Shown one piece after another: positions 1-59,969 of a stretch of DNA of 59,969 bases (position 1 is the stretch's first letter; every line of letters starts with the position of its first letter). The stretch lies in the IMG/VR virus record IMGVR_UViG_3300037310_000161; one strand, 5' to 3'. The position numbers and the translations under genes are program-made. This DNA is from a virus. The notes below the pieces were generated by a model. It did not search any database. It was not told where the DNA came from and saw only the letters and a program-made list of their open reading frames with translations.

Positions 1-127
1 TTTCCGTAATCTTGTAGACGGCATTTTCCCGCATGAATTTCTTCGCCGCCTCAAGCCGCCCAGCGCGGTTCCGGGTCTCGCTCCACATGCCCTTGAGGGC
101 GTCTATCATCATATCCTCAAGGCCCGC
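1..127. repeat. Terminal overlap copy 1, identical to 59843-59969; the contig is a circle opened inside a gene
   Basis: Read directly: tttccgtaatcttgtagacggc...catatcctcaaggcccgc occurs at 1-127 and again at 59843-59969. An exact 127-nt overlap is what a k=127 de Bruijn assembler leaves on a circular path (inference). Confidence 0.95.
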
Positions 128-3100
128 GACGTTGTAGAAAGTCTTGAAGGCGTTCTTGAGATCGTTGATCGCACTCAGATTGCCATGCTCCGGGATATCG
201 AGCTTCCCGTCACGGGTCATGTAATCCAGGGCGTGAGCCCACTCATGCGCGAGCGACCCGTCACCATGGGGCTTGGTGAGCCCGATAACCCGGTTTGCCG
301 GGTAAAACATCGCCGCCGCCTTCTCACCTTTCCCGCGAGCGCCCCACCCGATACCGAGGCGCATGTCATCGTCTATGGACATCCCGAGATCCGGCGCGCC
401 CAGAGTCTCCGCCAGCATCTTAAAGGAGTCGTAGGTCAGATCGAGGCTTCGCTGTCGGAACCTGTTTTCGACCCACTCACCGAAGTCGCCGCCCCGGAAG
501 CCGAAAACGTCCTGCAGTTCCTGGCCGGTGATGTTGCGCCCGTTGCGGTACTTGTCGGGAGTCTCTATTTCGAAGATACTCACCCGCCGGTTGCGGCGTT
601 CTATGTCCTTGTTCCGGGTCTCCTCCGTCTCGTTAAGGGTGTGGGCGTCCCAATCCTTCAGAAGGTGCATGGAGAGGTCCGTCTTCTTTTTGGTCATCCT
701 GAAGACTGCCCGCCCAAAAGGCGTAAGGTACGTGGTATCTTCGTCGTAAAATCGGGAGATTCTTGAATAGAGGGTGCGCCCGTCCTCCACCCCAAGGTCG
801 GACTCCATTTCCAGGGTGTTGACCCACCGCTCGGCGGTGTCCTCCCCGACGAAGAGCTTGAGGATGTTCTGCCGGGCTTCCATCACGGTGAGCGCGGTGC
901 TGACGGCTTCATCCATCTGCTCCAGGACGGAGATGTATTGGGCTGCCTTGGCCTTGACGAGCTTCTGCTGATCGTCCCCCTTCTTGAGCGCATAGACGAG
1001 TTTATCGGCAAACCGATTGGCCCACCCCTTTTGAATGCTGCGGTCCCGCTCAATAGCGTCCGCATAGGTCGGGAGCTTTTCCCGGAACTCCTTCAGATAT
1101 CGCTCGACCCCGGGGGTCCGGCCTTCCACCGGGTGCACCGTGTTGAAATGCTCCGAACGTGCGGTCATGTTTATGAGGGACTTGGCGATCTGCTCCGGGG
1201 TTGCGTTCTGCGTGATATCGTCCAGATCGACATCGACCGCTTTCACCCGGTCTTCGAACTTCATCCCGGCTCGCTTGCCGCCGAGGGCTTCCCCGAAGTC
1301 TTCGACCTTCGGCCCGCGTTTCTCGCCCTTCTTCTCCTCTTTTTCCGCCTTCTTGGCTGCCTTCATCTCCTCCATGAACCGCCTCAGATATGGCTTGATC
1401 TTGGCGGAGAAGCTGTCGTAAGCCCATTTCACGAACTCCCGGACATCTTTCCCGGCGGCTTGGAACTCTGCCAGGGCCGTCTGAAAATGCGGCTTCGCTT
1501 TCGCGTAGGTGTCCTCATCGATGGCGCCCGGGCCAGATTTGAGCGCCTTGCCGCCGAACAGTTCAAAGAGCCCGGAGACCGCTTCATCCAGGCCTTTGGC
1601 TCCGTGCTCCGCCGCACTCTTCAAGATGTCGCTGGCGGCTCGGACGGGTTTCGGGGTCTTGGGCGTGCGGGGCGTCCGCGGCCCGCCGGCCGGCTTCGTG
1701 ATGGTGATCGATTCATCCGGGGGCGTTTCTGCGGGGGCTGTCTCGGCCGGGGCTGCCTCGCCCTCGTCCAGAATGGCGTCCAACTCGTCCATGGACATTT
1801 CTTGGATCTGATCGGCCGCGCCCTTCCCCCCGGTTTTCTCCGGAGTAACGGTCTCTTCCACCGGGGCAGTCTCCACCGGGGCGGCTTCTTCCACTGGGGC
1901 CGGTGGAAGCGGCCCAGCTTCGATCAATTCCTTAACCTTGTCGGGGACGTTCTCCATTATGAGGGGGTAGATGACCCCGACAACTTCTCCGTTCTGCTTG
2001 ACCGCCACTATGTTGAAAGAGTTTTTCCGTTTGGATTTTTCCCCCACTTGGTGATAAGTCGCGTCCGGGAACTTCTTTCGAAACACGTCAAAGAATCGGG
2101 CGTCTACATGCCCCCCGTTATCGAATGAAATCACCCGGCGGTCTGCGGCATTGTAGAACGCAACCGGGTGAATCTGCTTTTCCCCGGTCTTCGCCTGATC
2201 CACAAAATCTTTGACCTGTTCATCTTCAATCTGGTCGAGCCCTTTCGGTGGCTTCCCCTGGATCACAATTCGACCGTCGGAATAGTAGGACTTGCCGTCC
2301 ACGGTGTGCGTAACCCATGCCTCCTGCCCGCTCGACGTGGGTAGGGGTCTGGGGAGCTTCGGGTTCGCCGGGGGCTGATACTCGGAGATCGGCTTACCTT
2401 CCCGAAACGGGGCGTGCGGATCCTCTTTGCCAGTAAAGTAGGACTCCACAAAAGCCTTGGCTTCTTCTTTCGGGACATGGGTCAGCAGGGCTTCCGCGTC
2501 CGCGAAATACTGTCCAGGTCTGTACCCACGTTTCTCCACCGCCCAGAGCTTTTTATCCTTCATCTGAGTGATGCGGAGATAATCCTTCCGGTTGCCCGCT
2601 TCGTCCAGGGCGTGAACATCAAATTCCTTGTACCCGCTCTTCGTGGTCTCGGGGCCGTACTCGACCGAAGTGTAAAGGGTCTTAACCTCGTCCAGGCCTT
2701 CTTCGACGCTGGGAAGCCGCCCGTACTTTTCGGTAAGCTCGGCTTCGTATTTCTTGAGCTTATCCTTAAGGTCCAGATCCTTTTCGATATCATCCAGGGT
2801 CACGTGGTCGATATCGTGGCGGCTTCCCGACTCAAAGGTTTCTGCTGCCGCCGGGGTTTCGGCTACTGTCGGAACCGTTTCGGTCGCTGTCGGGGTCGGG
2901 GTCGGGGTCGTTTCGGCCACTGTCGGGGCTGCGCCCTGGAGCTTCTTCTGGTTTACCGCGTAAACCTTGCCGGTTTCGTCGTGGATGACTGCCTGCCCCT
3001 TGGCGAAGCTCCTGATTGTGCCGGTGCGGGTCACACCCTTGCTGTCCATCCAGGAGACTGCTCCGCCGACACTGAACCCCTTGGGGGCTCTCGCCCCACC

Positions 3101-5518
3101 AACCCCGCCCCCGCCGGTCGGGGTAATAATCAGCTCAGATGTCGGTGATTTATCACCCGTTTCTGGGGTCGGCCCAGCACCCGCGCCGGCTCCCATCGTT
3201 TCGGTCGTCGGTGATAAATCACCGGCCGCTTGCGTACTCGGGGTGCTCTTCGGTTTTTGAGAGTCTTTAAACTGCGACATCCACCGCTTTAACGTATCGA
3301 CGGCAGATTTTTTAGACATGGCAGACCCCCACCCCAGGTCATCATCCCCGGCCATTAGCCACTGGTCGCCGTATCGGACAAACTGCCCGGAATTGTTATT
3401 AAGCAGACCGCTTTTTAGCTCTTGGGGGGTACGAAGTATAATTCTTTCCGCTCCATCAATATCGTGCCTATATTCAAACCCTTCCGGGTGCGCACGGGCT
3501 ACTTCTTTAAACTTTTCAAGAATACTTTCATCGATATCGACCCACGCTGACCCAGTGGCTGGGATAGCATCAACCGCCCCAATGATTCTTTTTCTGTGCT
3601 CGTCTTCGCTGTCGAGGGTTACTTCTTTTGGCTTTTGAACCACCTCATCCGCCTGCAGGGGTTTCTGAATCAGGGTACTGATGGATGGTTTTCGATATCC
3701 GGTCGGCGTAACCGGGGTTTCCTGCAGGCTCTTCAGCCGGATTTCCTCTTCTGTAAGCTCCGGACCCGCCGTCTGTTCTTGCGCAAGTGGTTTCCGGGTT
3801 ACAGTTTCAAGGCTTGGCTCGCGGTACGAGGCCTTCTCGACCGGGGTTTCCTGAAGCTCTTTCAGCCGCGCCTCGTACTTGGCGAGGTTCCGCTTCTGGG
3901 TTTCAGAGCGGGTCCATTCCCGGATCTTAGTCAGGTTGGCTATCCGCCACTCAAGGTCTGCCTGCTCCTGCTGGCGGCTGGCAAGCTCATCCTTCTGCTG
4001 CTGCTGCACCAGGATCGCGGCTTCATCGACCCCCCGATCATACATCTCTGTTTCCTGGTCTGCGGGGACGGGCGCTTCCTCGGGAAGGGTTTGCGGAGTC
4101 TCACGATCCGTGCGGAGCTTATGCGCGTCAAACAGGTCTTCCGCTTCAAGAGTCCCGTGGATCTCTGCGATCCGGGCGTCCACGTCCGCAGGCGGTACGC
4201 CTTTCGTCTTGGTGTCTTCCAGGTACTGAAGCTCCGTTTCAAGATCCTGCCTGGAAACCGGCGTGCCCGTGACATCCACGCCCTGATCCCCGTAATACTT
4301 CGCCATCTGCGCCCGGTAGTCTTCAAGGTTCCGGGTCTGCTCGGGCGTCCGAACCTTCTCCGGGATCTTCTCAAGGTTGGCGATCTTCAGGTCCAGATCG
4401 GTCAGACTGTCATCGGCGGAGATCACCCGCCCGTTTTGAACGGCATCCGTGGCGTACCGCCGCCACATTTCCGCTGTGGTCGGGCTCTGCGGCTTGATCG
4501 ATTCATAGGCATAGTTGACCGCCGCCATGCGCTTTTCCGGCGCGGTAGCCGGGTCTTCCAGGGCTTTCGTCATCGAGCGGTTCTGGAGAGCTTTAACCCC
4601 CTGCCCGGCCCCGACGAGGATCATGGAAGCGGTGAGCGCCGGGCCGAAGGCGGCCTTGGCGGCATCCCACCAGCCCTGATCGCCTATCCCGAGGGCGCGC
4701 TCTTCTTCAGCCTGCCCCGCCGCCGTTCCCATTTCCGAGCCGACTTCCGCAACCGCAACCCCGCCTGCCTTCTTTGCAAACTCTTTGAAGGACGTGGTGA
4801 AAAGATCCTTTACGGCGGAGAATGCCGCTTTCTTTTCCGGACCGCCGAGAAGCCCCAGGATCTTGGCCCCCACCAAGTCGGAGAGGATTTCACCGCCGGT
4901 CTCGTAGAGGGCTTCCCGAACCGCCGTGGGTCGGGTCAACCGCTCGGCTTCTTCCTGCGTCTTGCCTTCGGCCATGAACTTTTTGACGCCACGCTCCATT
5001 ACGTCATCATACTGGGCGAGCCCGAACGTAGTACCCGCCGAGAGCGCGAAGCCGACCATTGCCGGAGCCCCTGCTACAGCTACTGCCGCGCCGGGAAGGC
5101 CCGCGCTGATAGACTGTACCGCCGATTCGACGCCGCCGGTCACACTGCCCCAGACCGGGCCTTCCTCCCGGCTGGACTGCTGCATGAGCGGGGTCGTTTC
5201 CTTCCACCCTTCCAGGCTCTTGAGCCCTCGAGTCGTGAGATCGTTCACCACTTCGACCCCGCCCTTGGGGTCGAGGGTGCGCGCCGCCTGGAGGACCATC
5301 TCCCCAGCACCTACAACGCCGCGAGAAACGGCGGACCCCAGGTCTCCCAGATACCCGCGCTCTTCCGCCCCGATCTTCGCTTCCTGCTTTGACAGGTCCT
5401 CGTGGATCGTTTCCAGGTCGGAAAGGAATCCGCCCGGCTGGGGGGTTTTCGACTGAGCGCTTTCTTCCTCAGCCAGTTTCCTGTTGTGGATAGCTTCGAG
5501 ATAGTCAAGGAAAGCCAT
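1..5518 (-). CDS. Giant polyvalent virion protein, N-terminal about 1,839 codons; the ORF continues through the circular junction into 59842..49581 (5,259 aa in total)
   Basis: ATG at 5518 lies 14 nt after the upstream stop (5532) and follows a GGGAG RBS. Hand translation starts MAFLDYLEAIHNRKLAEEES. Spot checks: 5341-5401 (EDLSKQEAKIGAEERGYLGD), 5015-5104 (GLPGAAVAVAGAPAMVGFALS) and 226-310 (MFYPANRVIGLTKPHGDGSLAHEWAHALDY). The track lists no complete minus-strand ORF in this frame over 5.5 kb, as expected if the frame is open to base 1. (5518-112)/3 = 1802, so it is in frame with the listed 49581..59954 ORF. Confidence 0.85.
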   Translation of the reverse strand, partial: MAFLDYLEAIHNRKLAEEESAQSKTPQPGGFLSDLETIHEDLSKQEAKIGAEERGYLGDLGSAVSRGVVGAGEMVLQAARTLDPKGGVEVVNDLTTRGLKSLEGWKETTPLMQQSSREEGPVWGSVTGGVESAVQSISAGLPGAAVAVAGAPAMVGFALSAGTTFGLAQYDDVMERGVKKFMAEGKTQEEAERLTRPTAVREALYETGGEILSDLVGAKILGLLGGPEKKAAFSAVKDLFTTSFKEFAKKAGGVAVAEVGSEMGTAAGQAEEERALGIGDQGWWDAAKAAFGPALTASMILVGAGQGVKALQNRSMTKALEDPATAPEKRMAAVNYAYESIKPQSPTTAEMWRRYATDAVQNGRVISADDSLTDLDLKIANLEKIPEKVRTPEQTRNLEDYRAQMAKYYGDQGVDVTGTPVSRQDLETELQYLEDTKTKGVPPADVDARIAEIHGTLEAEDLFDAHKLRTDRETPQTLPEEAPVPADQETEMYDRGVDEAAILVQQQQKDELASRQQEQADLEWRIANLTKIREWTRSETQKRNLAKYEARLKELQETPVEKASYREPSLETVTRKPLAQEQTAGPELTEEEIRLKSLQETPVTPTGYRKPSISTLIQKPLQADEVVQKPKEVTLDSEDEHRKRIIGAVDAIPATGSAWVDIDESILEKFKEVARAHPEGFEYRHDIDGAERIILRTPQELKSGLLNNNSGQFVRYGDQWLMAGDDDLGWGSAMSKKSAVDTLKRWMSQFKDSQKPKSTPSTQAAGDLSPTTETMGAGAGAGPTPETGDKSPTSELIITPTGGGGVGGARAPKGFSVGGAVSWMDSKGVTRTGTIRSFAKGQAVIHDETGKVYAVNQKKLQGAAPTVAETTPTPTPTATETVPTVAETPAAAETFESGSRHDIDHVTLDDIEKDLDLKDKLKKYEAELTEKYGRLPSVEEGLDEVKTLYTSVEYGPETTKSGYKEFDVHALDEAGNRKDYLRITQMKDKKLWAVEKRGYRPGQYFADAEALLTHVPKEEAKAFVESYFTGKEDPHAPFREGKPISEYQPPANPKLPRPLPTSSGQEAWVTHTVDGKSYYSDGRIVIQGKPPKGLDQIEDEQVKDFVDQAKTGEKQIHPVAFYNAADRRVISFDNGGHVDARFFDVFRKKFPDATYHQVGEKSKRKNSFNIVAVKQNGEVVGVIYPLIMENVPDKVKELIEAGPLPPAPVEEAAPVETAPVEETVTPEKTGGKGAADQIQEMSMDELDAILDEGEAAPAETAPAETPPDESITITKPAGGPRTPRTPKTPKPVRAASDILKSAAEHGAKGLDEAVSGLFELFGGKALKSGPGAIDEDTYAKAKPHFQTALAEFQAAGKDVREFVKWAYDSFSAKIKPYLRRFMEEMKAAKKAEKEEKKGEKRGPKVEDFGEALGGKRAGMKFEDRVKAVDVDLDDITQNATPEQIAKSLINMTARSEHFNTVHPVEGRTPGVERYLKEFREKLPTYADAIERDRSIQKGWANRFADKLVYALKKGDDQQKLVKAKAAQYISVLEQMDEAVSTALTVMEARQNILKLFVGEDTAERWVNTLEMESDLGVEDGRTLYSRISRFYDEDTTYLTPFGRAVFRMTKKKTDLSMHLLKDWDAHTLNETEETRNKDIERRNRRVSIFEIETPDKYRNGRNITGQELQDVFGFRGGDFGEWVENRFRQRSLDLTYDSFKMLAETLGAPDLGMSIDDDMRLGIGWGARGKGEKAAAMFYPANRVIGLTKPHGDGSLAHEWAHALDYMTRDGKLDIPEHGNLSAINDLKNAFKTFYNVAGLEDMMIDALKGMWSETRNRAGRLEAAKKFMRENAVYKITE
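233..247 (-). other. HEWAH (HExxH) zinc-metallopeptidase motif of the giant ORF; the domain spans the junction (about 1-600 plus 59721-59969)
   Basis: The reverse complement of 233-247 is catgagtgggctcac = HEWAH. Context is GIGWGARGKGEKAAAMFYPANRVIGLTKPHGDGSLAHEWAHALDY, followed by PDEMFARAFEAYV after the junction. This resembles the metallopeptidase of phage and plasmid polyvalent proteins (recollection, needs HMM). Confidence 0.7.
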
Positions 5519-26900: not shown

Positions 26901-26930
26901 TCAAACGGCTCACCATGCAGCAAACCCCGC

Positions 26931-26959
26931 TTGACAATAACCCAACGTTGGGTTATTCT
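26931..26959 (+). promoter_or_regulatory. Sigma-70-like promoter with a perfect 20-bp palindromic operator filling the spacer
   Basis: TTGACA (26931-26936), a 17-nt spacer, then TATTCT (26954-26959). ATAACCCAAC|GTTGGGTTAT is at 26937-26956. An AGGAGG RBS and ATG 27035 lie downstream. Confidence 0.55.
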
Positions 26960-27034
26960 AATCATGCACAAACCACAAATCGGCTGTAAAAACAGCCGGT
27001 TAGGTAATTCTCTAACTAACACTAGGAGGACAAC

Positions 27035-45223: not shown

Positions 45224-45315
45224 GGATGAATGCGGGTCTGGGGCTCTCGCTCGCCTGCTAAGCGAGTGTAGTCCGTAGAGGGCTACCGAGGGTTCGAATC
45301 CCTCTCTCTCCGCCA
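45224..45315 (+). tRNA. tRNA-Ser(GCU)-like element with a defective acceptor stem, the probable attP core
   Basis: Anticodon arm CTCGC-CUGCUAA-GCGAG (45250-45266, anticodon GCU). Long variable arm GTAGTCC-gtaga-GGGCTAC. T arm GAGGG-TTCGAAT-CCCTC, then 3' TCTCTCC-G-CCA ending at 45315. The only 5' partner, GGATGAA (45224-45230), leaves 2 mismatches out of 7. Confidence 0.55.
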
Positions 45316-49580: not shown

Positions 49581-52500
49581 CTAATCCGCCGTCGCGGCGA
49601 GAAGCGCCCGCTCCCGCCTGCCGGGTTGCCGCATCCGGTTTATCTGACCCCGCAGTGCTTCCCTGCTGATGAGTGGAACGTAGGCCTGCCGCCCGGCCGA
49701 AAGCACCCGGTTGTTGTAAGCCGCCACCTGATCCATGATGATCTTGAGCTCCACCGGATCCTTGGCGCCGTCTGACACGTATGCCCGATACCGCTCGTAG
49801 ATCTTCCCCCTGGATTCGCCATAGCGGGACAGCTCCGCCTTAGCCTCGAACTGCCGCTCTTCGTGCATGGCCCGCTCGGATCCCCGGAACCCCGAAGCCC
49901 GCTGCATGGTCTCGGTCGTGCTCGGCCGGTACGGTTTCCCGTTCTTATCCCACACCTGCTTGCCGGAGCTGGTGGTGACCGAATCCAACTCCCGGAAGGC
50001 CCGAACGAGATTCGAGGCGAATGCCGGAAGCGCCTTTTCAGCCGCCTTGAGGGGCTGCCCGGTGGAGAGATACCCCCCGGCTTTCTGGATATCGGTCGCA
50101 ACCCCGCCGAAAGGCCCGGTAAGGTCGGTAAGAGTTTTAGGGACTTCGAGCCCGATGGCGAGAGACCCCGAGATATCGACCCCCAGAAGGCCCATGATCC
50201 CGTACCGGGCGCCTTTCTCCGCCGTGTCCCCGAGAGTCTTCCGGATGGTGTCGTAGACCATTTTCTCCGGGTCGCGGTCGTCGTCTGCGGCTCCGAGGAT
50301 CCCCCGAGCTATCGCCATGGCGGCGGCATAGCCCGCAAATCCCGAAGCCCCGCCGAGGACCGCCGGTGCCGCCAGGGCGAAAGCCAAGCCCTTGGCGTCT
50401 TGCCTGTTCAGCTTGTGCTCGAAGAGCATCTGCACGTAGTTGTGGGCAAACTTCTGAAACGTGTAGCCGGTCTGCGCGATCTTGGCGAACGGGTTGGTCC
50501 CCATGGCCCACGTCGGGAGCGTCCCCTTGCCGTACACCCCGTGCGCCCGCTCGGTTGCGAGCTGCGCGTTCTTTGCCGCCGTCGCGGCGTTCTGCCCCTG
50601 CGCCCGGGCCATCCGGTACGCGGCAAGAAGGGTCGTCCCACGGTTCCACTGCTCGGTTTTCCCGAACATCCACATGGCTTTGTCCATGACCTTAGACCAC
50701 ACGCCGCCGAACCCCTGATCCAACTCCCGCATGGCCTCCCGCACAAGCTGCGGGTTGTCCACCCCACGGGTGTGAACGTCGGCCATGAATGTCCGCTCCT
50801 CCTCGTTTGCAAACTCCTTTCCGCCCATGAAGGCCCCGTAATCTTTACCCGCCGTGAACAGCTCCTGCCCGATCTTGAGGAGGCTCCCCTTGCCGCCCAG
50901 TGCAAACTTGAGAATGGCGGGGGGTGCTGTCGTGGCCTGCGCCGTCACGTTGACGAGGGCCGACCTCGGGTTGAATCCCAGGTACTTGAAAGACACGATG
51001 GATTTCCCGAGCGCGATAGCCCGGTCCCACCTGTCGGCGTTCCGCATCTGCTCTGTGACGTATCCCTTGAGCCAGGAGTAGCGCTTAGGCTCTTTCACGG
51101 CATCAACGTCCATGAGCGCGGCCATCATCTTCTGCCCGGCTTCCGCCTTGGCGATACCGCCCGCGATCTGGGCGACGTAATTTCCAACCCTTTGGGCCGG
51201 GTCCGTGATGTAGCCCCGGACCACCTCGCCATCGCGCCCCGTTCGTGCGATCTTATGCGCCCGGAAGGCCCGGGCCTTCAGCATGTTGGATGCGGACACC
51301 AGGACTTCGCCCTGGAGGGCCGCGTTCAGCGCCGGGTGCTGGACCGCCTGATTGACCGCGTACTCGATGGCTTTTCCCATGTCCACGATGTTGAGGTTCA
51401 TCTGGATGTCTTCGGGGAGCTTCGAGACCAGGCCGTCCCGGAAGTTCGTGTAGCCTTCCCGCCCAAGCTGAAGCTTGAGCTTTTCGATCTGCCGCTGGCT
51501 TCCCTTGTGGAAGCGGTAGAAGTTGCCGTCCTTATCCTTGGCCGTCAGGAAATATTCTCCAGGCTCCCTGGACCGGGGGGCGTAAAAGCCCTTGAGTTCC
51601 CCCATCTCCTGGTAGAGAAGCAGGAGCTGGGAAAGGGTGTATTTCTGCTTGCGCCCGTCTCCCAGCGGGATCTCGATTGACGGCTCGCCCTGATCTGCTG
51701 GCGGTTTGTTCGGGTTCTTCTTCTCTTTTTCCAGGGTGTCGATGATGTCTTTGACCGGCTGTCTCAGGTACTCCAGCAACTCATCGAACGTCTTGCGAAC
51801 AGAGTCGACGGCCGCGAGCCCTTCGGCCGAAAGCCCGGACTTGGACCTCATCTCCGACCACTTGACCTCGTTCACGTCCATATCGTCCAGAATCTTTTCG
51901 ACCTTCGCATACTCCGCCGGGTCGGCTTTCCTGAGAGCGGACAGGCGGTCTACCGGGTCTTTATGCTTGAGGTAGATCTCGTTTTTGCGCTCTTCCCGGT
52001 GCTGGGTCGCATCATAGGCCTGCTTCACCGTCGGGTGGTCTATGTACTCCGGGGTTCGGAGCATACTCTCAAGGAACGTCATGTCCTTGGGGTGCAGGGC
52101 CTTCTTGAACGCCTGCACGGTCGAGGTGACTTCGTCTCTCATCTTGGACTTGAGCGAGGCATGGATGTCCGGGTTGCTGGGGTCGAACGTGCCGCGATTA
52201 AAAATGGATTTAATTTGAGTTGGAGAGAAAACAACATAAATATCATCAGTTATTGGATCATTCACATTTTTAAAAATTACTCCGTCGTTACCATCCGCTA
52301 TAGCTTCATCTAAAATCTCTGAAAAAGTTATATCGCCCCGCACTTCATGGTTAAAATCATGAATCTTAGGATTTTTTATAGATAAATATGCTGGAATTAT
52401 TCCTGGATTAAATTTTGCATATCGATCTCTCTGTAAATACATTTTTACAAAATAGTCAACCTTGTCTTTCTCTAGCTTAGCCTCATAAAATTCAACAGTA

Positions 52501-55500
52501 AGCCTTCGATCTTGTGCATATAATTTTTTTGCAACAGCAACATCATCTTTCGTTGTGTTATCGAGCACGTCATTGGCATCTAGCACTCTGTCTTCATACT
52601 GTTTTTTTGATAATTTCCCGGCATCGTACTCTCTTTTGGCAATATCAAGCTCCCTCAAGGAAGCTTTTGCTTTCTTGACCGGCTTTGGCAAAGACTTCAT
52701 TTGCTGCCTTGCTCGCCCTTCTCGTTTTTGAGTGATTTTATTGAATTGATCGTAGACCTCTTTTTGTCGAGAAAGAAAGGCTTCGCTTGTAATGTCGGGG
52801 GTCGTGTACATCTCGGCGTTGTCAGCAGATTTTGCGAAGAAAAACCCTCTTAGGGCGCTTGCAGCTCCCGTATTTTCTCCTAACCGACCAATGTCAAACG
52901 CTTTAAATTCAGGGTTGTCGGAGCCATGATACACTACCAGAGGTTCTCCATTTTCATCCACCACCTTGCTGTTACCGAACCACTTCTTGAAGGCGTCCGT
53001 GCTTGCAATCTTCTTCGCCGCACCCAGCACACCCTCAAGATTCTCGGCAGACTTCGGGCCTGCCTTCTCCAGGGCTTTCCTCGACGCCACCAGCATGGCT
53101 TTAATGTCGTTTTCGCTGAGCTGGATGTTGAACCCGAGCCGCCGCAGCCCCTCCCGAATGGCCGCGTACAGCCTCTTCAGAAATGCTGGGTTCTCCCCGG
53201 CTTCGGCCATCTCCGCGATCTTCTCGTCGGCCGCGATCAGCCGGTCGGCCTCTTCGGTGAGGTCCAGACCGTAAAGGTCCGCGATATCCTTCAGGCCCTT
53301 CTGCCCGTAGAGCGCCACCGCCTCTTTGAGGAACGGCTTGAACCTGTCCCCCAGAACCCCGCGCATCCCGTGGTGGCCCACCACTTCGTGGAGCACCACC
53401 TGCTGGGCGCGGTCTGCCGACTCCAGGTAGTCCGCAATCAGGTAAACGGCCCCGGTCGCTGGGTCGTAGAGACCCTCCAACCCGTCCGCGTCGGTCGCTC
53501 GGGAAAGGAGCTTCTGCACCTTTTCCTTAACGTCGTCCGGCAAGCCGTAGAGCGACTGCACGATCTGAATCTTCGGCCCGGCCTTCCACCTGTCGATAAC
53601 CGGGGAGAGCGCTGCCTGGATGTCGGACGCCTTGCTGCTGGACTGTGCTTGCCCCCGGGAGAACCGGAGATAGTCCTGAAGGTAGTTATCTTCCTGCTCC
53701 ATTTCGGCGTCTTGCTGCCCTTCCACCGCCCGCCGTCGCGCTTCCGCTTCCTCCGCCTGCTGCCGGGCAAGAAGCTCCTGTGTGATGGCTTCAAGCCTCT
53801 GTGTTTTCCGGGCCAGCTCTTCTTCCTGCGGAAACGGGGTCGCTATCAGTTTCTCCAGCTTGGGGGTTTCGTTCTTGATGTCCTGAATGCTCTTCAGCTT
53901 CTCTTGAATTGTTCGGGCGAGCGACCGCTCGATGTCGGTCAGACCGCTCTTAACGCCGTCCGCCATGGGTGCCTGATAGTGAACGTCTTTCCCTATCTTG
54001 TAGACAAGTGCCGTATCCCCTACCGTGAGGGAGAGATGGCCAGCCAGCGGGAGGAAAACCCTCGATTTCTTGGGCTTCCCCTTGGCGTCCGGGGTCTCGA
54101 CGGTGACAATGCGCCCGAATCTCCCGAGGTACACGCTGTCCGGGCTGTCTGCCGTCTTCTTGGCTGTCCACGCTGCATGAAGTTTGCGGGCGAGGGCGTT
54201 GACCTTGCCGCCCTCGGTTTCCAGGTTGAAATGGCGGTTGGGCTCGACAAGCCGCCCGAGGTTGTCATGCTGCGGCTTGAACTCTATCGCCATGATAGAT
54301 TCGGCTATTTGTTTGTGGATATGCGAGCGTTCAATGGTTTTCTCCGCTGCTGTCATCATCAGCGGGAGCTTCGCGAGCTTCTCCTTGGCCCGGCGGCGAC
54401 CGGACTCGTAGTCCGCCTTGACGTTCGAAAGCCGCCGCACTTCTTCATCCAGCTCGATCTTTTCCTTGTGGATCGGATCGTCTGCGAGCAACCCCTCCAT
54501 TTCCGAAGCGTCCATGGAGGTCTTCGAAATATCGATGATGTTCCGAATTTTCGGGTTGTTGCTCATGATCTGCTGCAGGACTTTTTCCTTGTAAGCCACG
54601 GTTGACCACATGAACGCATCGACCGTTTTCACCGTCCCGTAGTTGAAGATCCCGACGTTTTTGATCCGGTTCCCGTAGCGCCACCCACGCCCGTTGCGTT
54701 GCTCGTAGTTGGCATAAGTCCAGTCCACGTCCAGGTGGTGGATGTAGGACACCCGGTCTTGGACGTTCACCCCGATCCCCATCTTTGGGGTCGAGCCAAT
54801 GAGCACGCGGATTTGGCCTTTCCGCGCCTTGAGTAGCAGTGCGGCGAGATCGTCGTCGCTCTTCGCGTCGTGGATGAAAGCAATCTGCTCTTTCGGAATA
54901 CCCTTCTTGATGAGCTTCTGCTTGATGTCAGCGTAGATGTTGAACTTGTCTTTTTTGCCCGGTACTCCGCGATCCGCGAAGATGAGCTGCAGGTGGTTCT
55001 TTTCCTGGTACGCCTGCTTGTAATTCTTGGAGCTTTGATCCAGCTCTTCCGCGTCCACCGCTTTCTGATAAAGATCCCAAACCTTATCGACCGCGACGTT
55101 GACCTTCGTGTTCTCATAGTCGGGGAGAGTCGGGTCGTAGAGCCGGGGATCCATGGCGACCGTTCGCCCGTCGGAAACCACGCGGAGGATATTGTCGTTG
55201 ACCCCCCGGAAAGTAGCCTTGTCCCCGAGGGCGCGGATGCTCCGAATCCTCCGCTTGAGAAGATCCTGAAAGGCTTCCGTGAACTTGTTCCACTCCACCA
55301 TAACGGGCTCGGGCTTGCCCCCGATCACGTCCGGCCGGACAATCCCGAGGTCTTTCGCCTGCCGGACGTCCATTACCTGCCGCGCCAGCGCGAGAAGCTC
55401 CGGCACGTTCACGAACTCCGCAAACCGGCTGGTCATTTTGAAATGCCCGCCCTCCGGTGCGTACTCCGCCTCTTTGCGCATAACCCCGAACGTGTTCGCC

Positions 55501-58500
55501 CACGCATCGAACGTGTCGATCCCCAGCCGCGTAAGCTCGTTCGGCTGCAGATACCGCTGAATGTTGAAAAGCTCGCCCACGGAGTTTGTGAGCGGGGTGC
55601 CGGAAGCCAGGATGATTCCCCGACCGTTCCGCATGTGCAGGTACTGGGTCTTGAGGAAGAGGTCCAGAGCGATATTGGACTTCCCGGACTCCACACCCTT
55701 CATGTTCGCGAACTGGGTGGCAAACCCGATGTTCTTGTGGGTGTGAGCTTCGTCCGCCACAATCAGGTCGAGCCCCATTTCTTCGAACGTGGGGACTCCT
55801 TCCTCGCCTTCCGAGAGCTTGTCCAGTTTGTCTCTGAGGGCCTTGATCTGCTGCCCGATTTGCCGCACGGTGAACTGGGAGGCGCTAGCGCTGTCAGCGT
55901 GGCTCTGCACCCGCTCCATCCGCTGGATTTCCTGATGGAGGAACTCCCTTTGCGTATCGGGCGAGAGCTTGATTCGCTCAAAGGAGTTGTGGTTCATGAT
56001 GACGCAGTCATAATTTCCCGTGGCGATCTGGGCGAGCTGCCGCTGTCTCTTCTGCGGGTTGGTCTTGGAAACCGCTATCGTCAGGATGTTCGCCCCTGGA
56101 TAGAGCCGGAGGAAATCCGCCGCGATCTGCTCGACCGTGGCTTTCTTCACGATAAGGACCGGCTTCTTGGCGAGCCCGAGCCGCCGGGCCTCCATGATTG
56201 ACCCGATCATCGTGTAGGTCTTCCCGGTGCCAACCTCGTGCGCGAAGTATGTCGCCCCGGTCTGAAGGAACCGCCAAATGGCGTTCTTCTGGTGCGGTCT
56301 GAGCTTGATAATCTCGTCAGGCACTTTGCCGGGGAAAGTGAGGTGCTCCCCGTTATACTGCCGGTCCACAAACGAGTTGAGCCGCTCGTTGTAGGTTTTC
56401 TCGAGCTGGGCGGCCGCATCGTCGTTTTCGTAGACCCACTCGCTGAGCCTCGCCTGGAGTTTGGCGAGCTTCGCGTTAGCGGCGTCTGTCAGGGCGATGT
56501 TGGTGACCATCCGGGTCTTCCTGTTCCCGTTCTCGTCCAGGTACTCGATTTTATCCTCGATGACCGGAAAGCCGCCATTCAGCGCATAGTCGATAAGCCC
56601 ACGGTCGCTACCCTTTTTGAAGAGGTTGATCCGGTATTGTTTGAGCCCGGTCGCTTCCAGAACCTTGACGAAAAGAGGCACACTCAGGGAGTCGGTGTCA
56701 GGGTCGAAGTTTTGATTGTATTCCCTGATTGCCTCTTCAGAGCTGCCGAAGGTTTCTATCAGTTCATCACGTTCCTGGAGCGTCAGGTTTTCTCGAAGAG
56801 AGGTATACCCGATTGGGTTCTTCTTGTAGCTGACAACCCCGAACTCTTCTGCGGCAACCAGGGAAACCATCGCGTTGTCCTTCCGGCGTTTGGCTTCCGC
56901 TTCGGTACTCGCCCGGAAATGGGGGTTCCACATTCCCGTTTCAAGTACATGATCGACGTAAAAACCACGGATTCCACGGCCACCGAACAGACCGTCCTTC
57001 ACGAAGCTCTGAACCACCTGCGCCGGAACCCAGGACATCCCAAGACGTGCGCGGATGTCCGACATGGGGAGATCGACGGGCATTACAATCTTGAGCGCCT
57101 CGACGTTTTCCTTGTACTTCTCGTCCAGGGCGGCCGCCGCCTCGGCCACCGCCAGCTTGCGCCGCACGTTTCCGCTCAGATACGCGTCTGCCGCGACGTA
57201 CCCGGTCTCGGGGTCGTCGAATATCTGCCCCTTCAGTTCGGCAATAAGGGTGTCCCGGGTTTTGCCGGTGAGCTGCCCCATGTAGGCGAGGTCCACCCGG
57301 CCGCGCCACTGAAGCGAATAGAGAAGACTTTCATGTGAGGTATCCGCCGAAGTCGGCGGCTCTACCGGGGCGAGAGTGTTCTTGAAGAAAATGTCCGCGA
57401 GCCCGGTAACGGTCTTCGTCCCACGGTCCCACTTCTCCAGGCTGAGGAGAAGCCCGCCGTCCGGGTCATCAACGATGAGCCGGGCATTTTCCGGTTTGTT
57501 AATCGGCCCATACGTCTTGACCAACTGATCGTAGGCGGTGCGGAGCTGTTTTCTGAGAACGGTCAGGTCGGCGGCGGATTGCTTTTTTACCTGCGCGCGG
57601 AGAAGGTTTCGGATGATCCCCCGAATACCAATTACCCCCTTCATGAACTCCTGTTCTTTCGGAGTCAGATTGTCCCGCAGGGAAGGCCGCCCGTCCCGGT
57701 TCTGGTAAATCTTCCCGTTGTCCCCCACGTAGTAGTTGTAATTTTTGACGTGAGCGGCCTCCGGGATCATGTTCGTGAAGTCAAGCTCGATAGGAGCCCG
57801 GTCCTGCCCGTAAATCGAGACAGGCAAGCGGTCTATGGCGCTTCGCAAATCGTCGCGGTACGTGCTCTTCATAGCAACGTAGGGGCGGTATGCCCCGTAG
57901 CGCCCGGAGTTGACCGCGAGATCCCCGAGAACGTTCTCCGGGACCGCCTGGAAGAAGTTGTTCACCTGTGTTCTGCGGGGAGTCGAACCCGCTATGAAGT
58001 TGCCGTTGGAATCCACCTCGGGAAGGATGACCGCTTTGGACTCCACCCAATCGGGGACCGTTGGAAGCGCCGGTAGCCCTTCGCCTTTCTTCCGGAAGAT
58101 GAGAATGTCCGCTCCGGCGAAAGCCCCAGGGAAGACACCGTTTGGGAGCCGGATAGCGGAAACGAGGTCTGCGCTCTCCGCGAACTTTCGGCGGGCCTTG
58201 GCGTCTTCCTTATCCATGGTCCCCGTGGACGTGAGAACCACGGTCAGGCCGCCGGGCTTTGTAATGTTGATCATCTTGCTGATGAAGTAATCGTGGATCT
58301 GAAACTCTTCCAGGTTGTGCGTCCGGTCCACGGGCTCGGTCTGCCCGAACGGCACGTTGGAGATGGTGAGGTCATAGAAGTTGTTCGGGACGGCGGTCTT
58401 TTCGAACGGCTGATTCAGGATGTTCGCGTTCTGGTAGAGCTGGGCCGCGATTCTCGCGGAAATCGGGTCGATATCCACCCCTGTGAGGAGGGAATTTCGC

Positions 58501-59969
58501 CGCGTTTCCCGCGCCATGGTCCCGAAGAAATGCCCGATACCGCAGGAGGGCTCAAGAACTTTGCCGCCCATAAAGCCGAGGCGGCCGAGAGCTTCGTGGA
58601 CAAGTGCGGCAACGCTTGGTGGCGTGTAGTAGGCATCCACCGCGTTTTCGTAAAGCTGCCACCGCTCTTGATCGGTCAGGAGAGACTTGACGATTTCCGC
58701 ACGCCCGGCCCAAGCAGGGTTGGGGTAGGAACCGAGAGCTTCAGAAAGCTCCCCCCACCCGTTGTATTTGACCAGGATCTCTTGTTCCGCCGCCGTGGCC
58801 GTCCGGTTCTCGGCTTCGATCTGTTTGAGGGTTCGGATCGCCGCGATATTGTTGTTGAATCGGTCGGTGAGGTTGGTGTTCTCAAGATCCGTCGTGTTCC
58901 GGATGATGTAGTCTAGCCGCTCGGATACGTGAACGGCGTCTGCGTTGGATGAAGTGTCGGTTCCTCCTCCTCCGACGGCAAGTAGATCATCATCGGTAAG
59001 ACTATCTCCTTCGCTTCCTCCAGGCTGTACCCCTTCTGCATCAAGTCCACTACCAGATCCAGCGCCTTCTCCTGGGCCTCCAGGGCCGACTTCTCCAGCA
59101 CCCCCGCCGCTTCCAGGCGTGCTACCATGTTCGGACGGTGCTTCCGCCAGTGCTTCAGAGCCTCGGTCCCCCATGTCCGTAATTGTGCCATCCGGAACCT
59201 CCAATTTGATGATAGTGTCGCCGCCTGGATGATCGACCGCCTTCAAGAAGAAGGAAAGAGCATCATCCGCCTTGAGCGGCTGGTCGTACGCCACAGCCCC
59301 CTTGCCCGCGTACTCCACTCCCCCCTCGCCTTTTTCAAGCTGGTAGGAGTCATCGTAAGCGAGATACCCCTTCGGCTGGGCCGCCACCCCCCGCGCAGAC
59401 TGCTCGTATGCGTACCAGTAAAGCCCCCCGGCGCTTGCCTTCCCCCCGTAAAGGGCTTCATAGACCGCGTCGATCCGCTTCAGGAGCTTCTGGACTGCTT
59501 CTTTGGCTTCTTTCCGCTCGAGAGTCGTGATCGGGTTGTACCCCTCCTTCGCGTGGGGCTCGCCCTTTTCGGACCACTCAAGCTGGTCGAACATATTGTC
59601 AAAAAGCCGGTTGAACCTCTCCCGCTCTTCAGCCGTTGGATAAGCCCCGTTGTCGCGGTTGAAGAGCGTCTCCACACCCCCGGGAGCCACGAAATCCGTA
59701 TCGACCAGATACCTGTTACCTTCCTGGAGCTTGTCCGAAACGTAGGCTTCGAATGCCCGGGCAAACATCTCATCGGGCTTAGACCAATACTTGCCGACTT
59801 CGCCGCCGTCCAACGCCATAGCATTTTTGAAGAACTTCGTGTTTTCCGTAATCTTGTAGACGGCATTTTCCCGCATGAATTTCTTCGCCGCCTCAAGCCG
59901 CCCAGCGCGGTTCCGGGTCTCGCTCCACATGCCCTTGAGGGCGTCTATCATCATATCCTCAAGGCCCGC
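49581..59969 (-). CDS. Giant polyvalent virion protein, C-terminal 3,457+ codons (methyltransferase, SNF2 helicase, second zincin motif, ART-like domain, hydrophobic C-terminus)
   Basis: Track ORF 49581..59954. Its listed Met is internal because the frame stays open to 59969 and continues at base 128. Motifs are itemised in the separate domain features. Confidence 0.9.
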   Translation of the reverse strand, partial: AGLEDMMIDALKGMWSETRNRAGRLEAAKKFMRENAVYKITENTKFFKNAMALDGGEVGKYWSKPDEMFARAFEAYVSDKLQEGNRYLVDTDFVAPGGVETLFNRDNGAYPTAEERERFNRLFDNMFDQLEWSEKGEPHAKEGYNPITTLERKEAKEAVQKLLKRIDAVYEALYGGKASAGGLYWYAYEQSARGVAAQPKGYLAYDDSYQLEKGEGGVEYAGKGAVAYDQPLKADDALSFFLKAVDHPGGDTIIKLEVPDGTITDMGDRGSEALAEAPSEHGSTPGSGGGAGEVGPGGPGEGAGSGSGLDAEGVQPGGSEGDSLTDDDLLAVGGGGTDTSSNADAVHVSERLDYIIRNTTDLENTNLTDRFNNNIAAIRTLKQIEAENRTATAAEQEILVKYNGWGELSEALGSYPNPAWAGRAEIVKSLLTDQERWQLYENAVDAYYTPPSVAALVHEALGRLGFMGGKVLEPSCGIGHFFGTMARETRRNSLLTGVDIDPISARIAAQLYQNANILNQPFEKTAVPNNFYDLTISNVPFGQTEPVDRTHNLEEFQIHDYFISKMINITKPGGLTVVLTSTGTMDKEDAKARRKFAESADLVSAIRLPNGVFPGAFAGADILIFRKKGEGLPALPTVPDWVESKAVILPEVDSNGNFIAGSTPRRTQVNNFFQAVPENVLGDLAVNSGRYGAYRPYVAMKSTYRDDLRSAIDRLPVSIYGQDRAPIELDFTNMIPEAAHVKNYNYYVGDNGKIYQNRDGRPSLRDNLTPKEQEFMKGVIGIRGIIRNLLRAQVKKQSAADLTVLRKQLRTAYDQLVKTYGPINKPENARLIVDDPDGGLLLSLEKWDRGTKTVTGLADIFFKNTLAPVEPPTSADTSHESLLYSLQWRGRVDLAYMGQLTGKTRDTLIAELKGQIFDDPETGYVAADAYLSGNVRRKLAVAEAAAALDEKYKENVEALKIVMPVDLPMSDIRARLGMSWVPAQVVQSFVKDGLFGGRGIRGFYVDHVLETGMWNPHFRASTEAEAKRRKDNAMVSLVAAEEFGVVSYKKNPIGYTSLRENLTLQERDELIETFGSSEEAIREYNQNFDPDTDSLSVPLFVKVLEATGLKQYRINLFKKGSDRGLIDYALNGGFPVIEDKIEYLDENGNRKTRMVTNIALTDAANAKLAKLQARLSEWVYENDDAAAQLEKTYNERLNSFVDRQYNGEHLTFPGKVPDEIIKLRPHQKNAIWRFLQTGATYFAHEVGTGKTYTMIGSIMEARRLGLAKKPVLIVKKATVEQIAADFLRLYPGANILTIAVSKTNPQKRQRQLAQIATGNYDCVIMNHNSFERIKLSPDTQREFLHQEIQRMERVQSHADSASASQFTVRQIGQQIKALRDKLDKLSEGEEGVPTFEEMGLDLIVADEAHTHKNIGFATQFANMKGVESGKSNIALDLFLKTQYLHMRNGRGIILASGTPLTNSVGELFNIQRYLQPNELTRLGIDTFDAWANTFGVMRKEAEYAPEGGHFKMTSRFAEFVNVPELLALARQVMDVRQAKDLGIVRPDVIGGKPEPVMVEWNKFTEAFQDLLKRRIRSIRALGDKATFRGVNDNILRVVSDGRTVAMDPRLYDPTLPDYENTKVNVAVDKVWDLYQKAVDAEELDQSSKNYKQAYQEKNHLQLIFADRGVPGKKDKFNIYADIKQKLIKKGIPKEQIAFIHDAKSDDDLAALLLKARKGQIRVLIGSTPKMGIGVNVQDRVSYIHHLDVDWTYANYEQRNGRGWRYGNRIKNVGIFNYGTVKTVDAFMWSTVAYKEKVLQQIMSNNPKIRNIIDISKTSMDASEMEGLLADDPIHKEKIELDEEVRRLSNVKADYESGRRRAKEKLAKLPLMMTAAEKTIERSHIHKQIAESIMAIEFKPQHDNLGRLVEPNRHFNLETEGGKVNALARKLHAAWTAKKTADSPDSVYLGRFGRIVTVETPDAKGKPKKSRVFLPLAGHLSLTVGDTALVYKIGKDVHYQAPMADGVKSGLTDIERSLARTIQEKLKSIQDIKNETPKLEKLIATPFPQEEELARKTQRLEAITQELLARQQAEEAEARRRAVEGQQDAEMEQEDNYLQDYLRFSRGQAQSSSKASDIQAALSPVIDRWKAGPKIQIVQSLYGLPDDVKEKVQKLLSRATDADGLEGLYDPATGAVYLIADYLESADRAQQVVLHEVVGHHGMRGVLGDRFKPFLKEAVALYGQKGLKDIADLYGLDLTEEADRLIAADEKIAEMAEAGENPAFLKRLYAAIREGLRRLGFNIQLSENDIKAMLVASRKALEKAGPKSAENLEGVLGAAKKIASTDAFKKWFGNSKVVDENGEPLVVYHGSDNPEFKAFDIGRLGENTGAASALRGFFFAKSADNAEMYTTPDITSEAFLSRQKEVYDQFNKITQKREGRARQQMKSLPKPVKKAKASLRELDIAKREYDAGKLSKKQYEDRVLDANDVLDNTTKDDVAVAKKLYAQDRRLTVEFYEAKLEKDKVDYFVKMYLQRDRYAKFNPGIIPAYLSIKNPKIHDFNHEVRGDITFSEILDEAIADGNDGVIFKNVNDPITDDIYVVFSPTQIKSIFNRGTFDPSNPDIHASLKSKMRDEVTSTVQAFKKALHPKDMTFLESMLRTPEYIDHPTVKQAYDATQHREERKNEIYLKHKDPVDRLSALRKADPAEYAKVEKILDDMDVNEVKWSEMRSKSGLSAEGLAAVDSVRKTFDELLEYLRQPVKDIIDTLEKEKKNPNKPPADQGEPSIEIPLGDGRKQKYTLSQLLLLYQEMGELKGFYAPRSREPGEYFLTAKDKDGNFYRFHKGSQRQIEKLKLQLGREGYTNFRDGLVSKLPEDIQMNLNIVDMGKAIEYAVNQAVQHPALNAALQGEVLVSASNMLKARAFRAHKIARTGRDGEVVRGYITDPAQRVGNYVAQIAGGIAKAEAGQKMMAALMDVDAVKEPKRYSWLKGYVTEQMRNADRWDRAIALGKSIVSFKYLGFNPRSALVNVTAQATTAPPAILKFALGGKGSLLKIGQELFTAGKDYGAFMGGKEFANEEERTFMADVHTRGVDNPQLVREAMRELDQGFGGVWSKVMDKAMWMFGKTEQWNRGTTLLAAYRMARAQGQNAATAAKNAQLATERAHGVYGKGTLPTWAMGTNPFAKIAQTGYTFQKFAHNYVQMLFEHKLNRQDAKGLAFALAAPAVLGGASGFAGYAAAMAIARGILGAADDDRDPEKMVYDTIRKTLGDTAEKGARYGIMGLLGVDISGSLAIGLEVPKTLTDLTGPFGGVATDIQKAGGYLSTGQPLKAAEKALPAFASNLVRAFRELDSVTTSSGKQVWDKNGKPYRPSTTETMQRASGFRGSERAMHEERQFEAKAELSRYGESRGKIYERYRAYVSDGAKDPVELKIIMDQVAAYNNRVLSAGRQAYVPLISREALRGQINRMRQPGRRERALLAATAD
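52155..52997 (-). other. ART-like (polyvalent-protein ADP-ribosyltransferase-like) domain with a coiled-coil insert, inside the giant ORF
   Basis: FKKWFGNSKVVDENGEPLVVYHGSDNPEFKAFD (YHG at 52923-52931, verified) ... FFFAKSADNAEMY ... DGVIFKNVNDPITDDIYVVFSPTQIKSIFNRGTFDPSNPDI. The family assignment is from memory of the ART-PolyVal pattern and needs an HMM search. Confidence 0.5.
53370..53390 (-). other. Second zincin-like motif, HEVVGHH, inside the giant ORF
   Basis: The reverse complement of 53370-53399 reads VVLHEVVGHH. Context is GAVYLIADYLESADRAQQVVLHEVVGHHGMRGVLG. Confidence 0.5.
54645..56303 (-). other. SNF2/DEAH-box helicase module inside the giant ORF
   Basis: LRPHQKNAIWRFL, AHEVGTGKTY (about 56217-56231), LIVADEAH (DEAH at 55743-55754, verified), SGTPLTNSVGELFNIQRYL, and the C-terminal lobe IGSTPKMGIGVNVQ...EQRNGRGWRYGN. 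Confidence 0.85.
58080..58637 (-). other. N6-adenine DNA methyltransferase-like domain inside the giant ORF
   Basis: Motif I VLEPSCGIGHFFG at 58521-58559 and motif IV ISNVPFG at 58344-58364, both verified against the DNA. Confidence 0.8.
59843..59969. repeat. Terminal overlap copy 2, identical to 1-127
   Basis: Same comparison as for 1-127. The unique genome length is therefore 59,842 bp. Confidence 0.95.

Follow-up and report, generated by a model that had tools for sequence, protein, structure and literature searches.

The 59,969-nt IMG/VR virus record IMGVR_UViG_3300037310_000161 (the window, by which we mean the whole stretch of DNA analysed) encodes a giant polyvalent protein with an internal ADP-ribosyltransferase (ART) domain of the ART-PolyVal family. 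We consider it quite probable that the core of this ART was replaced in frame by DNA from a phage of low G+C content (GC), via crossovers inside the two conserved motifs, here called handles, that end the ART module. ART-PolyVal (PF18760) is the Tox-ART-HYD2-clade ADP-ribosyltransferase of polyvalent proteins from phages and conjugative elements (PMC5512222; PMC9503650). The parts of the locus are listed below, with residue numbers counted from ATG 59954 of the giant open reading frame (ORF); the position in the full ORF is that number plus 1802.

52164..52994, minus strand: whole ART-PolyVal module, residues 2321-2597 (full-ORF 4123-4399), delimited by the family alignments A1/A2/A3, PF18760 and AlphaFold2
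52197..52958, minus strand: AT-rich in-frame cassette, the ART core, residues 2333-2586, 762 nt, GC at third codon positions (GC3) 0.32
52551..52958, minus strand: cassette sub-block 1, residues 2333-2468, GC3 0.44
52197..52550, minus strand: cassette sub-block 2, residues 2469-2586, GC3 0.18, beginning at the start of insert helix 4
52917..52994, minus strand: 5' handle, AFKKWFGNSKVVDENGEPLVVYHGSD, containing His2343, with the composition switch between codons 2332/2333 (52958/52959)
52161..52235, minus strand: 3' handle, VVFSPTQIKSIFNRGTFDPSNPDIH, with the composition switch between codons 2586/2587 (52196/52197)
52419..52784, minus strand: helical insert of 122 residues, four helices, 19 Lys and 52 charged residues, placed after the strand-2 region and before the next core strand
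52926-52928, minus strand: invariant His2343 (VYHG), alignments A1/A2
52806-52808, minus strand: invariant Tyr2383, alignments A1/A2
52284..52286, minus strand: invariant Asp2557 (DG motif), candidate catalytic Asp of the H-Y-D triad, alignments A1/A2

A preliminary description of the window, made from its letters, had reported a low-GC block at 52195-52980 together with two counts, 18 G+C out of 60 at 52381-52440 and 38 out of 60 at 53041-53100. Both counts are exact, and the block has a GC of 38.9% against 59.3% for the window. Profiles of GC and codon usage, which that description had proposed, show an abrupt drop and a codon switch inside the uninterrupted ORF. The limits of the cassette were set by maximum-likelihood segmentation of GC3, which falls from 0.77-0.82 to 0.32 in the cassette with GC at the first and second positions (GC1, GC2) nearly constant; the shift therefore lies at synonymous sites and concerns codon usage rather than amino-acid composition. 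When compared to all other 254-codon windows of the ORF (mean 0.763, standard deviation 0.061, minimum 0.583), the cassette has a z of -7.3. The codon TTA, which serves none of the 284 Leu of the backbone, is used six times in the cassette, and ATA, AAA, GAT and TAT become dominant codons. Genome-wide, only one other place is comparable, 46968-48578 in a tail-fibre-like ORF.

Within the cassette, sub-block 1 holds one host-like run, 10 codons ending in G or C at 2378-2387 (longest run, p = 0.013). A reading of this sub-block as a patchwork of host-like and donor-like tracts was rejected, the runs test being not significant (z = -0.71). We also observed four sigma-70-like promoter matches in 52288-52600 of the cassette, versus 1.3 expected from shuffles; they are probably a by-product of AT-richness, and intragenic transcription starts are possible.

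Both junctions lie inside the two most conserved motifs of the family, and the flanking codons are host-like up to each of them. The 5' junction falls between the neighbouring codons GTG GTG / GAT GAA AAT (SKVV / DENGEP) and the 3' junction between ATT TTT AAT / CGC GGC ACG (IFN / RGTFDP). The leader had been called host-typical, which holds up to ...FKKWFGNSKVV but not beyond, the third positions of DENGEPLVV being already AT-rich. The AT-rich block is thus nested in the module, of which about 12 N-terminal and about 11 C-terminal residues stay host-like. On the host-like side of the 3' junction, AATCGCGGCACGTTCGACCCC shows, counted from the junction, an exact match of 21 nt to the GC-rich locus L036 and of 20 nt to the mid-GC locus L039, and the AT-rich inner sides of both junctions have their best matches in lower-GC loci. 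A blastn search of phage records with the cassette returned only matches of 58-75 nt, to the leader motif, in unrelated phages. No flanking direct or inverted repeats were found at the cassette, which makes transposition unlikely. Besides, none of the ART end motifs occurs a second time in the six-frame translation of the window, and neither an immunity gene candidate nor a silent cassette array was identified near the ART in the window. The domain-level replacement proposed earlier is supported as an in-frame swap, with the unit narrowed from the whole domain to the core between the handles. Since this swap lies between two conserved motifs, it would represent the replacement of a resident ART allele and not the arrival of a new domain.

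The compositional dip recurs across the family. In the 80 IMG/VR loci compared, which are the best 80 of at least 586 confirmed module matches, the module has a lower GC3 than the remainder of its ORF, a deficit that rises with backbone GC, from about 0 in low-GC phages to a mean of -0.144 in ORFs with GC3 >= 0.65 (n = 24). In 13/24 of these GC-rich ORFs no window has a lower GC3 than the ART module, and in 17/24 the module is among the lowest 5% of windows. The window is the most extreme case, and its closest insert-bearing homologues, on contigs of 61-64% GC, share the dip. Because low-GC ART cores are common in GC-rich phages, we regard the window as one extreme instance of a general process. 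The GC-rich F116, L086, L074 and L067 have ART modules of fully host-like composition, which speaks against AT-rich codons being a selective necessity of the domain and in favour of a continuum in the age of the acquisitions.

Related phages give direct evidence of core exchange. In the GC-rich sisters L057 and L066 (66-74% nucleotide identity), homology extends to ...VVYHG, is lost in the core and is back at ...QIKSA; the L057 core has a GC3 of 0.34 and another length, and the L066 core a GC3 of 0.80. This pair is a natural replicate of the window case, with the 'before' state kept. The loci L033 and L061 are collinear (76-78% identity), and in both of them the homology ends after the first 29 nt of the ART leader. 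In five related contigs, unalignable cores are framed by handles that are 93-100% identical: about 130-160 nt up to YHG on the 5' side and about 75 nt from AFxPEQIKS onwards on the 3' side. A 41-nt handle query of IMG/VR retrieved 20 contigs (L119-L138), whose 16 complete modules carry cores of 89-176 aa; these cores sort into 10 types that are 19-37% identical to one another. When all pairs are compared, the handles are 96% (5') and 93% (3') identical, and for the most part neither the cores nor the 1.1 kb upstream can be aligned. Identical core types turn up both in flanks that are unrelated (L134/L137 and L127/L133) and next to one or the other downstream variant, NINYMPS or NILFMPx; these two variants are reassorted with respect to core type. 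Together with L026, L044, L060, L071 and L083, this lineage consists of phages of 41-46% GC with at least 10 unrelated ART cores. The adjacency of core and handle lies within read length and is not affected by mis-assembly. Conserved junction motifs around a hypervariable segment with many alleles, as in polymorphic-toxin-like cassettes, are thus shown for related phages rather than for the lineage of the window itself; the window junctions lie inside the same motifs as the handles of these relatives. Altogether, the core-only divergence of L057/L066 and the 10 unrelated cores between identical handles support the 'exchangeable cartridge' of the preliminary description. Its location at the effector end of the protein did not hold, as the ART is internal, with a conserved C-terminal module (about 870 residues) coming after it.

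The ART-like domain read from the translation was borne out, in that the cassette coincides with a match to PF18760 starting at residue 2333. The match scores 60.8 bits (gathering cut-off 31.2) in two stretches, the first of which aligns residues 2333-2455 with profile positions 1-110 of 140. By homologue alignment, the module of the family runs from AFKxWFGxSKVVDENGEPLVVYHG to QIKSAxGNRGTFDPxxPDI. The AlphaFold2 model of the module (predicted local distance difference test score, 88) has a beta core with four helices intervening at 2391-2512, and this insert has no BLAST match among the 80 IMG/VR modules. Evidence for the fold agrees with an ART but is weak: the top Foldseek matches of the model in the PDB are the catalytic domains of PARP4 and tankyrase, not significant (E >= 0.14); the family profile matches the diphtheria toxin catalytic domain (E = 0.0079), and PDB sequence searches with single sequences gave no match. 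The active site of PF18760 has been described as His in strand 1, Tyr in strand 2 and Asp in strand 5 (PMC5512222). The invariant His2343, Tyr2383 and Asp2557 may correspond to this H-Y-D description, although the strand-2 GxYF position is occupied by Phe2372. We found no experimental study of ART-PolyVal in the literature searched, and almost nothing is known about it experimentally. As a side observation, some giants of 3,000-5,300 aa among the representative proteins (P0162-P0168) match the ART module in 15-28 separate stretches, and these tandem arrays could be cassette reservoirs.

As for the origin of the cassette, an exhaustive HMMER search of 1.84 billion representative proteins scored 12,637 family members. 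A word-indexed protein search listed 120 matches of <500 aa with a 285-aa query and matches of <=1508 aa with an 868-aa query; from this we infer a length ceiling of about 1.75x the query, at which giant relatives could be missed, and the search was complemented by HMMER and by tblastn scans of loci. Megablast with the giant ORF gave no match in 50,697 phage records, and single-protein scans of GTDB genomes and JGI metagenomes yielded no close relative. The closest relatives of both module halves were found in phage contigs of 39-44% GC in IMG/VR, namely L017 for the N-terminal half (63%) and L012 for the C-terminal half (58%). The nearest neighbour of the core alone is L007 (29% identity), itself an AT-rich core in a GC-rich phage; this core-only analysis is too weak to name a donor. 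In a regression of genome GC on GC3 (74 phage loci, r = 0.98), a GC3 of 0.18 corresponds to about 32% GC and one of 0.44 to about 45% GC. The foreign, lower-GC origin that had been proposed is therefore supported by the GC3-derived 32-45% GC, by codons unused in the backbone, by the abrupt junctions and by the relatives of 39-44% GC.

These data fit the following course of events. A resident, host-typical ART allele would have met a foreign allele during co-infection or during infection of a lysogen. Homologous or homeologous recombination, with crossovers in the two conserved end motifs acting as recombination handles, would then have replaced the 762 nt from just after SKVV to just before RGTFDP with DNA from phages of about 32-45% GC; the phage's own exonuclease and Gp2.5-like annealing protein would be available for this. 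The product would be a chimeric but intact ART, with the invariant His at the first handle and the Tyr, the Asp and the four-helix insert in the imported core. Once injected, such an ART may modify host targets, and core swapping may alter target or evasion specificity, as in polymorphic toxins. Observed are the break in composition, the places of the junctions, the identity of the domain, the conserved key residues and the polymorphism of the cassette in related phages; recombination, its timing, delivery by the virion and enzymatic activity are inferences. A resident ART is made plausible by gp60 of phage F116, which is collinear and has an ART that is host-typical in GC3 and lacks the insert.

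The ART module belongs to a protein that continues across the contig ends. The first 127 nt of the window are identical to the last 127 nt (1-127 / 59843-59969), so that the window is a circular contig with a unique length of 59,842 nt. No stop codon is present upstream of 59954, and the reading frame crosses the contig junction to an ATG at 5518, giving a giant ORF of 5,259 aa with zero internal stops that occupies about 26% of the genome. The residue numbers of the preliminary description are hence valid for the truncated ORF, the true positions being 1802 higher.

49581..59969, minus strand: C-terminal part of the giant polyvalent-protein ORF, 3,457 codons from ATG 59954, plus 5 codons to the window end
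1..5518, minus strand: N-terminal 1,802 codons of the giant ORF, wrapping past the contig ends, start ATG 5518
Residues 49-126 of the giant ORF: LPD1 (Pfam)
Residues 441-623 of the giant ORF: N6 adenine methylase, N6_Mtase (Pfam)
Residues 1216-1761 of the giant ORF: SNF2/ResIII helicase with Helicase_C (Pfam)
Around residue 2190 of the giant ORF: HExxH-type region
Residues 2333-2586 of the giant ORF: ART-PolyVal
Residues 2590-3457 of the giant ORF: conserved C-terminal module of about 870 residues

In polyvalent proteins, one polypeptide of a phage or conjugative element joins several effector domains to LPD domains (PMC5512222); in agreement with this, LPD1, N6_Mtase, SNF2/ResIII/Helicase_C and ART-PolyVal are found in a single phage ORF. 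PHROG 10089, 'DarB-like antirestriction', matches residues 1148-2125 (E = 0, 1335.7 bits). No Pfam domain matches the N-terminal extension of 1,802 residues, whose GC3 is host-like (0.7-0.8) throughout, and the plus-strand ORFs listed opposite to it at 185-5392 are probably spurious. A Gly/Ser/Glu-rich linker (58950-59165, minus strand, residues 264-335) has a GC3 of 0.31 despite a high overall GC; it is either a small foreign piece or a case of codon usage peculiar to linkers. The gene lies within a minus-strand block and adjoins the tail-fibre-like gene. By analogy, the giant protein is probably packaged in the virion and injected into the host; both this delivery and the ADP-ribosylation of host proteins would follow from the description of the family (PMC5512222, PMC9503650).

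The C-terminal module is common to other giant phage proteins. Its relatives, at 35-45% identity, are two 58-kb IMG/VR phage contigs, metagenome proteins and contigs of metagenome-assembled genomes (MAGs). On the MAG contigs (L102-L118, GTDB) this module forms the end of giant ORFs, and the MAGs bear the labels Syntrophobacteraceae, Smithella, Syntrophorhabdus, Syntrophaceae and Desulfobacterales; the backbone has its closest relatives in MAG prophages or phages that were assigned to Syntrophobacterales. As relatives of the C-terminal module were found in MAGs bearing such labels, the sequences suggest a syntrophic Desulfobacterota member as host group of the window phage. Two IMG/VR backbone relatives carry other domains, one of them InPase, a Sbno-type helicase and PBECR3, the other InPase, GGDEF, ddrB-ParB and LPD1. 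Among L102-L118, the giant ORFs that were examined (5 complete, 3 truncated) mostly have local GC3 dips, with none in L115 and L108. Sharp dips are also seen in the polyvalent ORFs of the two related IMG/VR phages, L001 (aa 1231-1351 and 2491-2611) and L002 (aa 781-841, 1051 and 1471-1561), and one of these dips covers a PBECR3 nuclease domain; the dips of L001 and L002 indicate that compositional mosaicism is not limited to ART modules.

The window is the complete circular genome, of about 59.8 kb, of a temperate tailed phage, encoding terminase, portal, major head protein, primase/helicase, DNA polymerase, exonuclease, Gp2.5-like annealing protein, endolysin and integrase. A third and milder low-GC spot was noticed at 26701-27100 (minimum 0.44 in 300-nt windows), where short ORFs overlap. 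Further features outside the giant gene are the following.

43371-44447: integrase gene
45224-45315, plus strand: tRNA-Ser (anticodon GCT), between the integrase and the minus-strand late block, possibly the attP/integration-site tRNA or else a phage-borne tRNA
46662-49058, minus strand: tail-fibre/tailspike-like ORF, 798 aa
46968..48578, minus strand: second in-frame AT-rich cassette, residues 161-697, GC3 0.20 versus 0.67-0.71 in the flanks

The tail-fibre-like protein has no Pfam and no PHROG match. Codon usage of its cassette correlates with that of ART sub-block 2 (r = 0.67), and its Ser codons are led by TCT (21) with AGT, rare elsewhere, second (17). The best homologues are only 31-49% identical. 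A search for the donor of this cassette found none, its best match, from mid-GC contigs, having 49% identity over 41% of the query.

Several points weigh against a core replacement in the window phage. The best full-length matches of the cassette are just 36-42% identical, with at most 42% in the exhaustive HMMER search, the best backbone relatives likewise reach only 35-45%, and neither a donor nor a close sister genome was found in any collection searched; the event can therefore be neither polarised nor dated for the window genome. The term 'recent' used in the preliminary description is thus backed by the un-ameliorated composition but not by a dated comparison with a donor or sister. In the backbone relatives examined, the 10 kb upstream of the common C-terminal module lacked any ART motif, so that only the host-like handles and the distant F116 speak for a resident ART. 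The comparative loci are metagenome assemblies, in which identical handles could create chimeric long-range linkages. The two-step GC3 (0.44, then 0.18) could mean two events, and the internal step may reflect a further crossover or a mosaic donor. Finally, where most of the family has the Tyr of GxYF, the window protein has Phe2372, as do its nearest insert-bearing relatives, and catalytic competence is for this reason not assured.

We weighed four other explanations. The strongest of them, to which we give a small but real chance, is that transfer took place long ago, the core being common to an unsampled clade and its composition reflecting slow amelioration or gene conversion from an AT-rich pool. 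The lack of sister genomes to date the event is compatible with this, as are the intermediate GC3 of sub-block 1 (0.44) with its host-like patch, which could be partial amelioration, and the continuum-like spread of GC3 deficits in the family (0 to -0.38). Sub-block 2, however, has a GC3 of 0.18 that sits at the floor of phages of 30-34% GC and hence shows no measurable amelioration, and host-like composition is back within one codon at both ends. An assembly chimera, in which a GC-rich and an AT-rich phage were misjoined at k-mers shared in the ART end motifs and no real genome would contain the cassette, appears improbable to us. The contig does look metagenome-assembled and circular with a 127-nt overlap, and the end motifs, conserved at the DNA level between unrelated phages and identical over 75-160 nt in some lineages, are typical mis-join sites; but two precise in-frame joins would be needed here and two more in the tail-fibre gene. 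The overlap suggests a k of 127, and a 32%-GC phage cannot share 127 identical nt with host-like flanks of GC3 about 0.85 on both sides. A partner strain with GC-rich handles and an AT-rich core would leave the biological conclusion unchanged, and the same architecture is present in the independent assemblies L057, L007/L008, L004 and L005.

Slightly less credible still is the absence of any transfer, with a native segment whose AT-rich synonymous codons are under selection for slower translation while the ART folds, for keeping a toxic domain weakly expressed or for a DNA or RNA signal embedded in them. The systematically lower GC3 of ART modules in GC-rich phages can be read as such a family-intrinsic bias, there is the slight sigma-70-like excess (4 versus 1.3 expected), and the Lys-rich insert could add to the effect. 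Against this, GC1 and GC2 are nearly constant, the block has sharp boundaries at recombination-prone conserved motifs, F116, L086, L074 and L067 have host-like modules, and the L057 and L066 cores differ in sequence and length besides composition; moreover, an unrelated tail-fibre domain has the same codon usage (r = 0.67), and the block has no Rfam family match. As for a self-splicing or mobile insertion in frame (intein, group I/II intron, or an element of the insertion-sequence or miniature inverted-repeat type), an abrupt, in-frame and compositionally foreign block in a long ORF is what it would leave, yet we give it next to no credence. The block encodes the conserved ART core with the invariant His, Tyr and Asp and aligns to Pfam from position 1, and the genome shows no flanking direct or inverted repeats, no Rfam intron match and no other copies of the ART motifs; catalytic-core content, lack of repeats and lack of an Rfam match effectively refute intein, intron and transposon alike.

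Replacement of the core between handles can be set beside several known systems. The window protein shares with the ART-PolyVal family the end motifs and the giant multi-domain context (methylase, SNF2 helicase, zincin-like region, LPD1), and differs by the 122-residue four-helix insert and by a core compositionally foreign to its own gene. A known counterpart in layout is gp59/gp60 of the Pseudomonas phage F116 (Hollowayvirus), with collinear methylase-helicase, HExxH, ART-PolyVal and a C-terminal module with an EQxNR region; in F116 the unit is split in two ORFs, the ART lacks the insert and has a host-typical GC3 of 0.6-0.88, and identity to the window protein is 23-36%. Like the DarB-type antirestriction proteins of P1 (PHROG 10089), the window protein has a phage-encoded methylase and helicase core, at more than twice the length of P1 DarB. 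DarB of P1 is packaged in the virion; classical P1 DarB is not known to have an ART, an HExxH or a C-terminal module.

Tail fibres and receptor-binding proteins show intragenic mosaicism, as in classical modular phage evolution. The in-frame, domain-level replacement with N- and C-terminal parts kept is common to both cases, and the window's own tail-fibre-like gene shows one; the ART, unlike tail fibres, is a putatively injected effector, and its crossovers lie at short peptide motifs conserved family-wide. In CdiA-CT, toxin swapping is mediated by the VENN motif. Toxin-domain swapping in polymorphic toxins is the nearest analogue in concept, and the resemblance lies in a junction motif, conserved in DNA, that bounds a hypervariable effector part exchanged by recombination, with many unrelated variants in identical flanks. 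The differences are that the variable unit is internal, has two handles and a core of one constant fold instead of different C-terminal folds, and that the ART locus of the window comes without an evident immunity gene or silent cassette array. Polymorphic toxin systems include the MuF toxins of temperate phages and Rhs (PMC5576092; PMC3585180). The ART domain, the polyvalent protein class, the variability of polyvalent domains and the mosaicism of phage genes are already known. In the literature searched we found no description of an ART-PolyVal core as a polymorphic cassette between two nucleotide-conserved handles, of crossovers inside ART-PolyVal end motifs, or of systematically AT-richer ART cores in GC-rich phages; 'GC content' and 'shuffling' had no text match in the founding ART-PolyVal paper (PMC5512222).

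The GC3 break at the handles offers a simple computational marker of recent exchanges. The handles are also natural splice points for engineering chimeric effectors, and their sequences could serve as polymerase chain reaction primers for surveying effector diversity in communities. Injected phage effectors stand at the front line of the conflict between phage and host, and core exchange between handles shows where in the enzyme diversifying pressure acts, its probable object being target recognition or escape from host counter-measures. More tentatively, and with somewhat less than even confidence, we propose that ART-PolyVal is a polymorphic phage effector locus, in which the handles act as portable recombination sites that swap the target-determining core among co-infecting phages. 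If so, the two nucleotide-conserved handles, the one ending at the catalytic His and the other beginning with the QIKS strand, would bridge phages of very different GC and host range, the AT-rich cores of GC-rich phages would be the trace of a net transfer, across host phyla, out of a low-GC phage reservoir, and the AT-rich cassette of the tail-fibre-like gene would suggest joint import of host-entry and host-takeover modules. Altogether, these data document that genes pass between phages whose base compositions differ widely, in this case apparently into a phage of syntrophic Desulfobacterota.

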